Below the pieces are notes generated by a model. That model did not search any database and was not told the origin of the DNA. It saw only the letters and a list, made by a program, of their open reading frames with translations. 64,000 nucleotides of DNA from Dictyostelium discoideum (taxonomy: Eukaryota). Below, piece by piece: positions 40,700 to 63,282 of this stretch (positions are counted from its first letter, which is position 1; every line of letters begins with the position of its first letter). The stretch covers positions 1,120,001-1,184,000 of the forward strand of contig CM000153.2 in assembly GCA_000004695.1 (NCBI GenBank), read 5' to 3'. The position numbers and the translations under genes are program-made.

Positions 40700-43137
40700 A
40701 TGAATAAAGATAATAGTATTAATAAAAATAATGTAAACAATGATAATAATAATAATATCAATAATAATGTAATTAAAAAATTAAAAGAAGAAGTATCATT
40801 AAAGGTTAGATCATCAGTTGTAATAGTTTCATTGGAACAAGCTATTGAAGAGATAATATTTAATTCAATAGACGCAAGAGCAACAGTAATATCTATTTCA
40901 ATAAATTTATCGAATCTATCATTCGAGGTAAAAGATAATGGATTTGGATTGTCATATGAAAATTTAAAATTTGTTGGAGATCGTAATTGTACTTCAAAGA
41001 TCAACTCACTCTCTGATCTTAAATCATTAAAAACATTTGGATATCGTGGCGAATCATTAGCAAGTTTATCAAATATATCATCATTAGATATAATTTCAAA
41101 TTCATTTGGTTCAACCATTCAAAAATCAATTTCATTTGGCAAAGTTGACCAATTTAAAATTTTAGATAATAATAATAGTAGTAGTTGTGATAATAATAAT
41201 AATAATGTTAATAATAATAATATTAATAATAATAATAATAATTCAATAGCTAATGGCACAATTGTAAAGATTAGAGATTTATTTAAAAATTATCCTGTAA
41301 GAAGACAAGGTTTATATCATCCAAATTTAAAACTAATAATTAAAAAGAGAATTGAAATCATAGCTTTATCATTCCCAAAGATTGTATTCTCAGTTTATGA
41401 TGAAACAAAGAGTTTAACTATACTAAAAACACCAAAAGATACATCATTTCTTTCTTATTTCAAACATTTCTACGGTCAAGAGATGATGAATAAATTAGAA
41501 TACGTAACCTCTGAAAATTATAATAATACCACCAACAATAATAGTAGTTCTTACTATTTATCTGGTTATCTTTCTTCACCTCATAAAAAAGGTCATCCAA
41601 ATAAATCTTTTCAATATATTTGTAAGTTTTTTTTTTTTCTTGAACAATGAAAAAAAAAAAAAAAGAATTAATATTAATAATCAATTAATATATATATAAA
41701 AAGATTTAAATAATAGAATAGTTTTAAATACAAAATTACACAGACATGTTAATCAATTATATCAAAAGTATAGATTATTTAATGCAACCAGAAAAGCAAA
41801 CGCAAATGTATCAAAAATTGCAAAAAAAGAGGTGATTGATAGTAATCCAATATTCATACTATTTTTAAGATGCTCACAATTAGAATATGAACGTTCTTAT
41901 GAACCTTCTTCAAAAACATTTTTAGAATTTAATGATTGGAAGAAACCTTTGGCTGAAATTCAAAATGTTTTAACAAAATTTTTAACAAAACATAGATCTG
42001 ATGATGGTGGAAATTCAAGAGGTAAATCAATAACTACAACAGCACTACCATCATCTCAACCAAATAATTATGATGGAAAATCAACATCAACATCAACAAC
42101 AACAACAACAACAGCAGGTGATATTTCAATATTTGAAGATGATGATTTATCAAATGTTGTTCAAGACACCCAAGAAGATGATGGTGATGGCTTTGATATG
42201 GGATATAGCAGTAGTATCGATGAAGATGAAATAATGAGTTCTCAAAATGTTCGTGGTACAAGTGTTGACCAAGATAATAATATATATGAAAATGAAGATC
42301 ACCAAGGAATGCAAATTGGTTTTGATGATTTAGATAATAACCAAATCGATAGTAGTGAGGATGAGGAACATTTAAAAAGATTAAAAGAAATAGAAGAGGA
42401 AAAACAATACATTAATGATATTTTACCAGACTCTTTCTTTATGAATGATAAAAATGCAACAACAACTACCACAACAACAACAACAACAGGTACACCAACT
42501 AAAACAACAACAACTACAAATAATTCTATATCACCATTTAAAACAATCAAGAACATCTTCACAACAAACATCACCATTCAAATCTATAGTATCACCTTTA
42601 CAAATTTCTCCACCAAAAACAACTCTTTCGCAAAGTCAAATACAGAAATCATCACCTCTTAAACTATCAAATGTAAATAATCAAATAATTGACCAATCAC
42701 CACAATCTTCTTATGATGAATCAATAGAAGTTACACAACAACCATCTACTTTACCATTGTCTCCAATTCCTTCACCTCGTATTCATAGAAATATTCCACA
42801 CAATAAAAAAGATGATACTGCTTCCACATTACAAACAACAGATCCTTACGAGAGTTCGTCAAGGGATGTAACAGATTCTCGATCATCAGCGGATTCAGAT
42901 GCAACCATTTTAGATGATAGCCCACCTCCAAGACCACCAATATTCAATTTCCCACAAACTAAAAATTCAATACCCACAGATGAAAATCACTTTCATTCAA
43001 ACATAGAAGATCAAGAGGAAGAAAGAAGTGAAGATACAACCACAATGACTCCAACATCTAAATTAAACATATCATCCCAAACACCACCTACACTTCCACC
43101 AACTACCATTCCACATATCACAAATAACTCAACCCAA

Positions 43138-43214
<77 letters not shown>

Positions 43215-45945
43215 TAATAATAATGAAAATAAAGATTTGGTTCCATTTGTTAAAGTGGAACAAAATAATGATAAGCAATTAGCAATATATAAAAATGAAT
43301 CAGACGATGATGATGAGGAAGAAGATAATAATAATGATGATAAAGAAAAAAGAAAATACCAATTAAAAGTTTCAACATTTAGAGAAGTAATTGATGTCGA
43401 CCAAATGGATGTAACAACAATTACTACAACAACTACAACTATTAAAAGTGTAAAAACAGTTACTACAAAAACTTTATCACCATTTAGCAAGGCTGCACTG
43501 GCATCAGATGCTTTAAAAAAGAATCAATATAAGGTAAAGACAGAACATCCAATATTAATTAAAGAGGAAGATTATAAAGAATTAGACTCTTTGAAAAATA
43601 CCTCCAATAATGATCAACTAAATGATTCTTCATTATTTAGTAATTCATGTCTTGATATTGTTCCATTTGAAATTAGTGATGATGAAGCAGATGAAGACGA
43701 TGACAATTTAACAGGTTTAAATGGGCAAAAATTATTATTTTTAGAAGATGGTAAACCAACAAATAATGGTAATAGTAATAATACTCTTGCAGCAGCAGCA
43801 ACAACAACAACAACAACAACTACTACTACTACTACTACTTCACCTTTTCAAAGTAGTCCACCATCTTCACCATTATCACAACCAATTAAATCTATAATCT
43901 CTCAACAAACAACACCTCCAAAAAATGTAAGAAAAAATGATATTTTTGATGAAGATGAAAAATCAAACACATTATCATCACCAATTAAAAAGTTAAAGAC
44001 TGAAAATGACATTCAAAATAATATTGCTGACAGTAATGGTAATAAAAACAAAAACACTACAACCGATAATATTGAAATAATAGTTTTGGATGATAGTGAT
44101 GAAGATTTACCTCAAAATGAACAAACAACGTCAAAATATTTTAAATCAAATGAACAATTATCATCAACAGAGTCAACAAAATCAAAACTAAATCAAATTA
44201 TTTGTAAATTAGAAAAAGAATCGTCACAATCACAACAACTAACAATACCAATAACATCAACAACCTCAACCTCGGACTTAGCACCAACCTCAACCTCGAA
44301 CTCAGCATCAACCTCAACACCAACTATCCAAACTATAAAGACAACGTCAAACCCACTTACAATTCCTGAAATATCATTCTTGAGAAAACCAACGGCTAAT
44401 GAAGAAAAGAAATCTTTATTCAGTGATTCTGAATTATCAACCACTGAAAGTGAGGGATCCTATAATGAAGGTTTTATTTTGTCATCATCATCATCATTAT
44501 TAAAGAAAAGAGTTTTATTTAACATGGAAGGCAATCAATACTATTCACCACCTCAAATTCAAAATAACTCCTCCAGTGACCAAGATGAAGAGTATAATGC
44601 TAGTCTAACTTCACCACCACCATCACCAAAACAACAATACCAAAATCACTATGAACAAAATGAAAAAGGAAATCTTTTTATTAAAGAAGAAAAAGAAAAA
44701 GAAAAAGAAAAAGAAAAAGAAAAAGAAAAAGAAAAAGAAAAAGAATTAGAAAAAGAAAAAGAATTAGAAAAAGAATTAGAAAAAGAAAAAGAATTGGAAA
44801 AAGAAAAAGAATTAAAAAAGAAAAATGATGACGAGGTACAACAAGTACAAGAAAAAGAACATGATGACCATTGTTGTCCAACTCATAACATTGGTGATCA
44901 TTTAACACTTAGTGGTATTGGTAATATTAAAGAACATCAAGACGATGAATCTCTTGGAGATGATGATGAAGAAAAAGAATTTATTCATGATTCTGATTAT
45001 AGTAAAATTGAATTGGCGAAAAAATATAATTATACTGATGATAGAATTAGTCCATTCTTTGATAAAAGTATTAAACCTGGTGTTGAAATGAAAGATATCA
45101 ATATTAATGTTAGTGGTTTTATTAAAGAAGTTCTATCTCAAAAATGTACAGAGGTAATACCAAAGGAAATGTTACAAAACTTTAAATTTATCACTCAATG
45201 GGATAACAAGTTTTTAATTTGCGAAGCAGATGGTATTGTATTGATTTTAGATCAACATGCCGTTTCAGAAAGAATCAAATTGGAAATATTAGAAAGAAAG
45301 TATTTTGGTGAGAATAAATTCGACCTTTGTCCAATGCCAGAGAGAACAAGATGGTCATTAACAGAGTATGAATTGGAACTAATGAGAATCTATACAAAAC
45401 CATTGGAACAATGGGGATTCAAATGGACATTCAATAAAACTTCAATAAACATTTCACAAGTACCAATGTTTTGTTTAGTAGGTTTGGGTGTAAACGATCT
45501 CAGAGAATTTCTTTATCAATTAGAAAGTAGTAAAGGAGCAACTTCAAATAGACCTCCTGCTGCTCATAGAATTTTAGCTTCAAAAGCATGTAGAAGTATG
45601 TATCAATTTTAAAAATTAGTAGTATTAGTTTTATTGAATTTTTCAACACATTAATATTAACTTTTTTTTTTTTTTATAAAAACTAAAAAAAATAGCTGCA
45701 ATTAAATTTGGTAATAAACTTTCAAGAGAGATTTGTATAAAACTATTAGAAGATTTAAATGAATGTAATATTCCATTTCAGTGTGCTCAGTGAGTATTTC
45801 TTTTTTTATTTTATTTTGATTTTTATTTATTATCTCATTATAAATTTACTAATTATTATTAATTTTATTTTTTAGTGGAAGACCAAGTATAATCCCTTTA
45901 ATTAATTATGGTAAACTCTTTAGTTCAGTAAAAGGTTTATATTAA
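40700..45945 (+). CDS. mlh3: MutL homolog 3 (MLH3) mismatch-repair/meiotic endonuclease subunit; exons 40700..41633, 41703..~45595 (containing two frame disruptions), 45696..45789, 45876..45945
   Basis: N-terminal GHKL ATPase (LEQAIEEIIFNSIDARAT...VKDNGFGL...TSKI...TFGYRGESLASLS). YLNNRIVLNTKLHRHVNQL and ...YPIFILFLRCSQLEYERSYEPSSKTFLEFNDWKKPL are collinear with human MLH3 [21 protein letters not shown]...TLIEFQNWDTLL but sit in different frames. The C-terminal MutL dimerisation domain is in a third frame, followed by two short exons encoding ...ACR|TAIKFGNKL...NIPFQCAHGRPSIIPL (the MutL CxHGRP motif). Confidence 0.8.
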
Positions 45946-58220: not shown

Positions 58221-59642
<1,422 letters not shown>

Positions 59643-60564: not shown

Positions 60565-61635
60565 ATGACAAATCAATCGAATTGCCAAAATTGTGATTGT
60601 AAAACATTTGACCCCAACCCTTTTAAACCATTATACTGTTCAATATGTCTCCATAATCATAAAGTGAAGAATGCAAATGTTTCAGTGAATGCGACATCAA
60701 CATCAACATCGGCAGCACCACCAAAATCAAGCTCCACTAATAATAAAGGCGCAACAATTAGTGGTTCACCATCAACATCATCATCCTCTTTAAATCAACA
60801 ACAAAAGAGTAAACCATTACCACCAAAAACTCCTTCAAAATCACCATCAAGTCCAAATTTAACTTCTTCTTCTCCTTCTTCTTCTTCAAGTGGTGGGGGT
60901 GGTGGCAGTGGTGGTAGTACAGCAGTAAAAAAGAGACCAGATGCTCAAAACTTTTCAAAACAATCCTCTTCATCCTCATCATCATCATCATCATCATCAT
61001 CATCAAGTCCTTCAGCAACATCACCAAAAACTTCATCAGGTTCATCATCATCATCCAAATCATCAGGATCATCATTTATGAGTAAAATTGGATCATTTAA
61101 AGATGCAGTAACAGATAAAGTAAATACATTAAAAGAGAGTACTTTTTCATCTTCGTCGTCATCATCTAGTGAACCAGAGGTTAAAGGATATGAAATTTCA
61201 GGGCCAACCGATTATAAACATAATACTCATATTGGTATTACAGAGAATGGTGGTATTTCAACTAGAAATATTCCAGAAGAATGGAAACAAACTTTCCAAA
61301 AAGTTGATCAAGCATTAAAACAAAATGGTAAAAGAGGTATTACAAAGAAAGAAGCAACATTCATTTTAAACGCTGTATTAAGTGGTCAAACACCAAGTCC
61401 AAATGTTTCATTAAGAACTACACCAGTTGCAACCTCTGCAAATGCACCTGCTTTACCACCAAAACCAAATGCTAATAATAAACCATTACCATCTGCTCCA
61501 AAAACTATACCATCGGCATCACCATCAATTTCTTCAACTACTACTACCACTACTTCAACCTCATCCTATAATAGTAGTGTAAAATCTACACCATCATCAT
61601 CTGTATCATCATCTGTATCATCATATTCATCTTCT

Positions 61636-61680
<45 letters not shown>

Positions 61681-63282
61681 TATAATAAGAATACAACTTC
61701 ATCATCATATAATAATGGTGAAATTGAAAAATTAAGAGATAAAATTAAACAATTAGAAAATAAATTAGCAAATGAAGAAAAAGAACATAATTTATTATTA
61801 ACTAAATATAAAACATTAGAATCGAAATATACTGGTGGAGAAACCAATCAAAATCAAGCAGTTAATGAAGCAAAAACTGCTAAAACCAAATTGGAACAAT
61901 TAGAACGTGAACATAGTTCATTATTGAATAAGATAAAGGTATTGGAGACTAATAATCAATTGGTTCAAAATGAGAATAAGAATCAAGAGAATGAATTATC
62001 AAATTTAAAGAAATCCATATTAGATTCTAAAAAGAATATGGATGCCGATAAGGGACCATTGATTGAAAAGATTTCAACATTGGAGTCGAAATTAAAGGAT
62101 TCCGAATTTGAAAAGAGATCAATTCAATCAAAGGACCAAGAACTTGAGAAAAAGCTAAAGGAACTAACTAACCAATCCAAAGAATCTGAACAACAATCAT
62201 TTGAATACCAAGTGAAGATTAAAGAATTATCAAGTCAATTGGACTCCCTAAAAGAGGCATTGTCAAATAATAAAGATTTGTCATCAAAGATTCAAGAGAT
62301 TTCAAATCAATTCCAACAAAAAGAAAAGGAGTTGAAAGAAAGCTATGAGAAACAGTACAACCAAAGATTGAATAACCAAAAGCTTGAAATTGATCAACTC
62401 TCTAGCACCCTCTCAAAGGAACAACAGAAATCGAATAAATTTGAAATGGAATTAACCTCTAAGCAAAGGGACTTTGAATCAACTCAAAAACAAAGAGACG
62501 AATTTAAATTGCAATTTAGTAAATCTCAATCTCAATCCGATCAATTACAATCAACAATCGATCAATTGGAGAATCAACTTAAACAAATTAAACTCTCACA
62601 AGCTCAATCTCAAAATATTTTAGATTCTAATAATAAACAACAATCGGATCAATTGAAATCATTATCTGATTCAAATAATAAATTAATTAAAAAGAATGAA
62701 GAATTAGAATCGATCATTGATAAATCAAGAAAGGATTCAATTGATATCAAAGGTAATTATGAACAAAAGATTGTTGAATTAGAATCTAAAATTAAAATCT
62801 CTCAAAATGAATCAAATAATCAACATGATCAAAAATTATTTGATCTTCAAAATAAATTTAAATCTGAAAAAGATGATTTATTATTAAAAATTAAACAATT
62901 ACAAGATCAATTATCAACAACAACAACAACAACAACAAAACATCAATCACATTCTTCTTCTTCTTCAGCTGTTCCTGCTGCTACTACTACCTCTACTTCT
63001 ACTCCATCATCACCACCACCTCCACCACCTGTTGCACCACCACCTCCACCATCTTCATTCAAACAACCTTCATCAGATACTTCTAGAAATAATTTATTGG
63101 AATCAATTCGTCAACCAAAAGAATTGAAAAAAGTTACTGAAGCTGATATGACTCACAATAATCAACAAGAAGATGATGGCTCAATGGTAAATATATTAGT
63201 TAGAGCTCTCATTGATAGAAGACAAAATATGAATGAAGACGATTACGATGATGAAGATGAGGAAGTTGCTTGGGATGATTAA
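60565..63282 (+). CDS. WASP-family-like protein lacking WH1: N-terminal Cys/His cluster, CRIB, about 540-aa coiled coil, poly-Pro, WH2-central-acidic (VCA) tail; single exon, 905 aa
   Basis: CRIB: EISGPTDYKHNTHIGI (ISxPxxFxHxxHVG). Poly-Pro: SSPPPPPPVAPPPPPSS. WH2: RNNLLESIRQPKELKKV. C-region: VNILVRALIDRRQNM. Acidic/Trp tail: EDDYDDEDEEVAWDD. N-terminal: CQNCDCKTFDPNPFKPLYCSICLHNH. Confidence 0.7.

Follow-up and report, generated by a model that had tools for sequence, protein, structure and literature searches.

WASP and N-WASP, including Dictyostelium wasA, carry a CRIB-containing GTPase-binding domain (GBD), a poly-proline region (PPR) and a C-terminal VCA module of WH2 (V), central (C) and acidic (A) parts, and are autoinhibited until released by a GTPase. 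Kollmar, Lbik & Enge (2012, BMC Res Notes 5:88; PMC3298513) proposed a further family, WAWH (“WASP without WH1”), whose type II has neither the WH1 domain nor the basic region and opens with a pair of CxxC motifs and a Ser-rich region, followed by a GBD, an extended coiled coil and a C-terminal PPR and VCA. Type I of the same proposed family (DdWAWH_B; PMC3298513) likewise combines a GBD, PPR and VCA in the absence of WH1, but retains the basic region, lacks the N-terminal CxxC module and has no long coiled coil, whereas WHAMM and JMY are without a CRIB/GBD, begin with the N-terminal domain WMD and are reported to be specific to metazoans. Here we describe an open reading frame (ORF) in a stretch of 64,000 nucleotides from Dictyostelium discoideum (contig CM000153.2, positions 1,120,001 to 1,184,000 of the forward strand; the whole stretch is referred to hereafter as the window, and all positions are its own) that a first-pass annotation, made from the sequence alone, had singled out as an atypical WASP-family protein, and whose product matches the type-II member DdWAWH_A residue for residue.

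The ORF runs uninterrupted for 905 codons to a TAA stop. Once alignment gaps are removed, its translation is identical at 905 of 905 positions to the entry DdWAWH_A_fl in the supplementary alignment WAWH.fas of the 2012 survey (PMC3298513), and all of the features that define a type-II WAWH are present in it. Architecture, family name and exact sequence were thus all published in 2012 and the gene was already known; the first-pass annotation had suggested a comparison with the known WASP-family genes of D. discoideum, and that comparison returns a gene already described. The gene model itself is well delimited, with an ATG in the A-rich AAAAATG context typical of Dictyostelium (ACAAAAATGAC), an N-terminus that is collinear, residue by residue, with those of orthologous proteins, a long poly-A/T tract 3′ of the stop, and a G+C content of 0.30–0.39 within the ORF vs 0.06–0.20 in its flanks; no AT-rich, intron-like dip was seen inside the ORF. 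At the base composition of the ORF itself, 905 stop-free codons would arise by chance with a probability of ~10^-31, which rules out a chance frame. Relative to WASP and N-WASP, the encoded protein differs in having neither WH1 nor basic region and in beginning with a Cys/His module; relative to N-WASP it has one WH2 motif rather than two, and a coiled coil of ~400 residues separates its GBD from its PPR.

Two WASP-related genes of D. discoideum, wasB and wasC, were reportedly described by Veltman and Insall in 2010. We put the probability at about 0.85 that the ORF is D. discoideum WAWH_A, a type-II WAWH and one of these two genes, and that it operates by the Rac-released, dimeric VCA mechanism set out below. 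As to which of the two it is, the proximity of Arp3 and the accession ranges suggest wasC as the most likely candidate. We take arpC to lie on chromosome 4, in the DDB_G02837xx–02838xx range shared with UniProt accessions of the form Q54Q.., for which the literature offers one point of calibration (DDB_G0283801 = Q54QK1); wasC is presumably Q54QH4 and wasB presumably Q7KWP7, which we take to be an accession of the chromosome-2 type.

The GTPase-binding region bears out the CRIB motif claimed in the first-pass annotation. Pfam PBD matches residues 210–254 (30.2 bits; gathering cut-off 21.3; E=5.6e-7), and in the motif EISGPTDYKHNTHIG the substitutions F->Y and V->I are the sole departures from the classic I-S-x-P-x2-4-F-x-H-x2-H-V-G. 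A GBD profile matches the CRIB structures of PAK, WASP and N-WASP in the PDB over the CRIB part only, and an hhalign comparison with the GBDs of WH1-bearing WASPs reaches a probability of 99.5 with an alignment that stops at the CRIB end. C-terminal of this point an AlphaFold2 (AF2) model, computed from a three-sequence alignment of the ORF protein and the two first-found homologues, places two helices (residues 238–253 and 261–272). A joint MAFFT alignment sets these helices (…GITKKEATFILNAVL) opposite the corresponding WASP segment (…NPETAQFILSVIG) with a four-residue gap, an arrangement compatible with, although no proof of, an autoinhibitory segment of the WASP type (WAID). The sequence preceding the CRIB, SSSSSSSSEPEVKGY, is Ser-rich and acidic, and no basic region was found there. 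A Pfam scan of the ORF protein gave no match to WH1 at E<=1 (the same scan detects WH1 at 66–79 bits in the control WASPs P0103 and P0148) and no Ser/Thr kinase domain of the kind that would mark a PAK-type effector.

The C-terminal tail was compared with known structures as a profile built from the tails of the ORF protein and the two first-found homologues. This profile matches the VCA of N-WASP in its Arp2/3-bound form (6uhc_H, residues 423–490) at E=5.7e-10 over WH2, C and the beginning of A, in agreement with the earlier reading of a poly-Pro/WH2/central/acidic-Trp tail, and it also matches the WH2 repeats of N-WASP (E=2.4e-16) and the VCA of WAVE1 (E ~8e-4). The WH2 motif, with the core LLESIRQPKELKKV, scores below the Pfam cut-off as a single sequence (residues 838–861, 18.7 bits vs 23.1); AF2 places a helix at residues 839–849, and the motif fits the WH2 pattern given in PMC3298513. 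Aligned to the C region of N-WASP (6uhc_H), the C region reads V875-x3-V879-x3-I883-D-R885-R886-x2-M889, and so presents three large hydrophobic residues spaced by three, an R/K position and a terminal hydrophobic residue; AF2 predicts a helix over residues 874–887, and L878, A881, L882, I883, D884 and R885 are invariant in homologues. Trp903 of the acidic tail is invariant in those homologues with complete C-termini, and both the C region and the acidic tail fit the published patterns (PMC3298513). By profile, the GBD and the VCA are each homologous to those of WASP and N-WASP. A WASP-family Arp2/3 activator lacking WH1, as first proposed, is thus the predicted identity of the protein, every domain call beneath it having been reproduced with profiles and the literature being in agreement. 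In the Synstelium polycarpum orthologue (P0001) the sequence diverges immediately past …LVRALIDR and no acidic/Trp tail follows; a gene-model error, such as a missed intron or a frameshift, is a more probable cause than true loss of the A region.

Table 1. Features of the WAWH_A gene and product, and neighbouring features of the window (positions are those of the window)
Feature	Residues	Window position	Strand	Basis
Complete single-exon ORF, D. discoideum WAWH_A		60565..63282	+	ORF list; 905/905 identity; N-terminus aligned with orthologue starts
Cys/His module, presumed zinc-binding knuckle/ribbon	7-32	60583..60660	+	Conservation, AF2
Ser/Thr/Pro-rich low-complexity region, 40% Ser	36-205	60670..61179	+	Composition; AF2
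Conserved predicted helix, SFMSKIGSFKDAVTDKVNTL	172-191	61078-61137	+	AF2 (low confidence); conservation
GTPase-binding domain: CRIB and two helices	210-272	61192..61380	+	Pfam PBD, profiles, AF2
CRIB motif, EISGPTDYKHNTHIG	210-224	61192-61236	+	Pfam PBD
Pro/Ser/Thr/Asn-rich linker with 13-Asn run	276-383	61390..61713	+	Composition; AF2 disordered
Heptad-repeat alpha-helical (coiled-coil) region	384-786	61714..62922	+	AF2, heptad trace, window scores
Poly-proline region, PPPPPPVAPPPPP, presumed profilin/SH3 docking	817-829	63013..63051	+	Direct reading; conserved in homologues
WH2 (V) motif, RNNLLESIRQPKELKKV	841-857	63085..63135	+	Pfam sub-cut-off; orthologue profile; AF2
Central (C) amphipathic helix, MVNILVRALIDRRQNM	874-889	63184..63231	+	6uhc_H alignment; AF2; conservation
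Acidic (A) tail with tryptophan, NEDDYDDEDEEVAWDD	890-905	63232..63279	+	Direct reading; W903 conservation
Arp3 exon		15639-16505	-	Residues ~130-416 relative to bovine Arp3, E=5e-143
MutL-type mismatch-repair homologue		40700-41650, 42445-45612	+	At least 2 ORFs: N-terminal HATPase_c_3, C-terminal MutL_C
Upstream divergent ORF		59319-59642	-	Cys-rich motif then coiled coil; Pfam ATG14 51.3 bits, cut-off 33.2
AT-rich spacer (~920 bp) between the two divergent start codons		59650-60550		G+C content down to 6-8%

These elements can be assembled into a mechanism that would follow that of WASP in its outline. The VCA is predicted to act in the usual manner, WH2 delivering an actin monomer while Arp2/3 is bound and activated by the C helix along with the acidic tail and its Trp. 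GTPase-released autoinhibition of the WASP and N-WASP kind is presumed to operate alike in WAWH_A, such that at rest the C helix would be held by the GBD with its CRIB, together with the two helices that come after it, and binding of GTP-bound Rac to the CRIB would release the VCA. The heptad region of ~400 residues most likely forms a parallel dimer, which would place two VCAs on the two CA-binding sites of Arp2/3 and would confer high potency after release; dimerised VCA is said, in work of Padrick and colleagues from 2008 and 2011, to bind Arp2/3 much more tightly. At the other end of the protein, the Cys/His module most likely binds zinc and may take over the targeting role of the WASP WH1 domain and basic region through partner or membrane binding. 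Regarding the GTPase, the first-pass annotation had named Cdc42/Rac; a review of Rho effectors describes Dictyostelium as lacking a clear Cdc42 and using GTPases of the Rac family, and the Rac half of that claim therefore stands while Cdc42 drops out, the upstream regulator being expected to be Rac. The GBD of WASP-B binds active Rac1B, RacA, RacB and RacC (review, PMC8305917).

Several observations weigh against this interpretation. Both the hhalign and the PDB profile matches of the GBD are confined to the CRIB and leave out the WAID-like segment, and the assignment of that segment accordingly draws on the MAFFT alignment and the predicted helices. The AF2 monomer model (predicted template-modelling score, pTM, 0.23) is uninformative on the pairing or oligomeric state of the coiled coil, and the Pfam and PDB comparisons detected no functionally characterised relative of the Cys/His module. 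In addition, F-actin is reportedly raised, and not lowered, in both wasB and wasC nulls, an outcome that sits uneasily with a simple activator.

This last point is what would be expected were WAWH_A mainly an attenuator of, or sink for, active Rac and Arp2/3 rather than a net promoter of actin assembly: its CRIB would sequester or confine Rac-GTP, SCAR and WASP would meet competition from its VCA, and loss of the protein would then raise F-actin and yield ectopic pseudopods. Jeon and Jeon are said to have found in 2020 ~1.5-fold more F-actin in wasC-null cells. According to a review (PMC8305917), WASP-B and WASP-C carry GBD and WCA despite an unconventional topology and are found at clathrin puncta, their knockouts affect actin, adhesion, phagocytosis and chemotaxis, and wasB-null cells in particular show raised and mislocalised RacC activity together with extra lateral pseudopods, the RacC phenotype being in line with attenuation. 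That review cites Chung et al. 2013 under a title containing the words “an attenuating role”, and according to the abstract of PMC6926487 WASP itself restricts active Rac. Against this, the VCA of WAWH_A is complete and conserved up to its Trp, which is hard to explain without productive engagement of Arp2/3, and attenuation at the level of the cell also fits an activator that works locally and competes for Arp2/3 or Rac where these are limiting. We consider a primarily attenuating protein unlikely, though a serious rival, and retain the Rac-released activator.

The dimeric component of that mechanism depends upon the nature of the central helical region. AF2 predicts near-continuous helices over residues 384–423, 429–566 and 573–786 at a per-residue confidence (pLDDT) of 75–86, with short breaks at 424–428 and 567–572, and leaves nearly all other regions of the protein disordered. 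A heptad trace across residues 384–786 finds hydrophobic residues at 0.65 of a positions and 0.61 of d positions vs 0.11 elsewhere, with five register shifts; coiled-coil window scores exceed those of a shuffled-composition null, and the Pfam families Filament and Tropomyosin give sub-threshold matches. The heptad-rich, helical character of this region thus agrees with the first-pass annotation, although the length given there (~540 residues) has to be shortened, the AF2 helices and the heptad trace together delimiting a coiled coil of ~400 residues. Could such a helix serve instead as a single extended rod or spacer that holds the VCA far from its N-terminal anchor, or as a microtubule or membrane platform in the manner of WHAMM and JMY? 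The layout of those proteins is parallel (N-terminal targeting module, long helical region, PPR and WCA; PMC3298513), and ~35–39% of the a/d positions in WAWH_A are polar, with K, E, Q and S abundant. However, the a/d occupancy stated above, and a register that shifts only 5 times in 403 residues, are typical of a genuine coiled coil rather than a charged single alpha-helix; in Entamoeba, type-III WAWHs carry a highly charged E/R/K spacer instead (PMC3298513), which suggests that the two are distinct solutions. Pfam returned no matches to WHAMM/JMY domains in the ORF protein. We regard a non-dimerising helix as rather unlikely and a dimerising coiled coil as the better description.

The N-terminal cluster that the first-pass annotation had noticed in place of a WH1 domain proves to be a compact and rigidly conserved unit. 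Its 26 residues follow the pattern C-x2-C-x-C-x2-F-x4-F-x4-C-x2-C-x-H-x-H, in which C7, C10, C12, C25, C28, H30 and H32 are invariant across all homologues, and it aligns gaplessly in 24 instances. The module is defined here by these seven conserved ligand-type residues, in distinction to the 2012 description by Kollmar and co-workers, which gave two CxxC motifs alone; by their number, the seven could hold more than one metal. The core of the module is modelled by AF2 at a pLDDT of ~90. No Pfam family exceeds its cut-off on the module, and the PDB holds neither a sequence nor a fold match to it; its weak structural neighbors are small zinc fingers only. The best Pfam candidate, zf_Tbcl_2 (19.2 bits vs 27), was rejected as too weak, being matched by 2 of 24 members only. 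The module also occurs in two to three tandem copies joined by Pro/Ala-rich linkers in six otherwise unrelated protist proteins (P0017, P0028, P0098, P0122, P0137 and P0049), all uncharacterised, derived from metagenome or SRA assemblies and without Pfam domains.

A cysteine-rich cluster at the extreme N-terminus might alternatively act as an S-palmitoylated or redox-sensitive membrane tether instead of a structural zinc site, the more so since type-II WAWHs are without the PIP2-binding basic region (PMC3298513) and some other membrane tether is to be expected. Such a tether would not, however, readily account for the rigid, gapless spacing, for the two His and two aromatic residues conserved beside the five Cys, for the internal and tandem placement of the module in other proteins, for its compact and confidently predicted fold, or for a structural resemblance that, weak as it is, points to small zinc fingers alone; we judge lipidation or redox tethering improbable and favour zinc binding. 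That the ORF might be a chance frame or a mis-joined low-complexity region and no functional gene, as its large Ser, Thr and Asn low-complexity parts and the absence of the exact protein from the protein collection searched could be taken to hint, is of negligible probability and is ruled out by the ~10^-31 odds given above, by a domain order kept in distant Amoebozoa and by the identical sequence of 2012.

An exhaustive HMMER search with a profile of residues 1–290 gave 353 matches at E<=1e-3. Among them, sequences that combine the N-terminal module with a PBD/GBD-type segment came from Synstelium polycarpum, Acytostelium subglobosum (partial) and Clastostelium recurvatum, and from Mastigamoeba balamuthi, Mastigella eilhardi, Pelomyxa schiedti and Diphylleia rotans, with the full type-II architecture seen where the sequence is complete; the 367-residue sequence of Stenamoeba stenopodia (P0008) comprises the N-terminal module and PBD only. 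The 2012 survey had recorded type-II WAWHs in amoebae and Apusozoa (PMC3298513). Judged by sequence, their range is wider and extends to Archamoebae, Discosea and Diphylleia, and the type-II architecture may therefore predate Amoebozoa. The Diphylleia record comes from a transcriptome assembly in which contamination is possible. Its protein (P0119, 851 residues, from a CRuMs flagellate) has a degenerate CRIB, EISGPINTQHVMRM. The Archamoebae members are P0011, P0019 and P0021, and in the protein of Mastigamoeba a double zinc ribbon is additionally present between GBD and coiled coil.

Taken jointly, the proposals that the 26-residue module is a distinct, unnamed zinc-binding domain serving as a targeting device in place of WH1, and that type-II WAWHs possibly predate Amoebozoa, are ones we hold tentatively, at somewhat short of an even chance. 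What may be new lies in these two aspects, a module still without a name and a wider range of taxa; as a discovery the gene is otherwise minor. Its wider interest is that regulation in the WASP family has been reassembled repeatedly about one shared core of GBD and VCA, and the N-terminal Cys/His module is the most tractable remaining point from which to approach the targeting of a coiled-coil WASP relative.

Between the module and the CRIB, the Ser/Thr/Pro-rich region is modelled by AF2 at a pLDDT <50 throughout, except for the helix of residues 172–191. In and around this helix S166, G168, S173, D184 and K185 are invariant in homologues. The helix lies directly N-terminal of the CRIB, at the position that the basic region occupies in WASP.

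The Arp3 gene that had been noted ~44 kb from the WAWH_A gene is indeed present in the window, as an exon on the opposite strand (Table 1). The interval holds genes for a dihydrouridine synthase (Dus), a translation-type GTPase, a mitochondrial carrier, HMG-CoA lyase and an FKBP-TPR protein, and further for a pirin, homogentisate dioxygenase, a hydrolase, a protein kinase and a MutL homologue. A functional linkage between Arp3 and WAWH_A was considered and rejected given these ~44 kb of unrelated genes, because of which their proximity looks coincidental. Immediately upstream of WAWH_A and divergent from it, across a spacer of extreme AT content, lies an ORF that looks like the first exon of an Atg14/Barkor homologue. 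The coding sequence of the MutL homologue is divided between two or more ORFs, presumably by introns.

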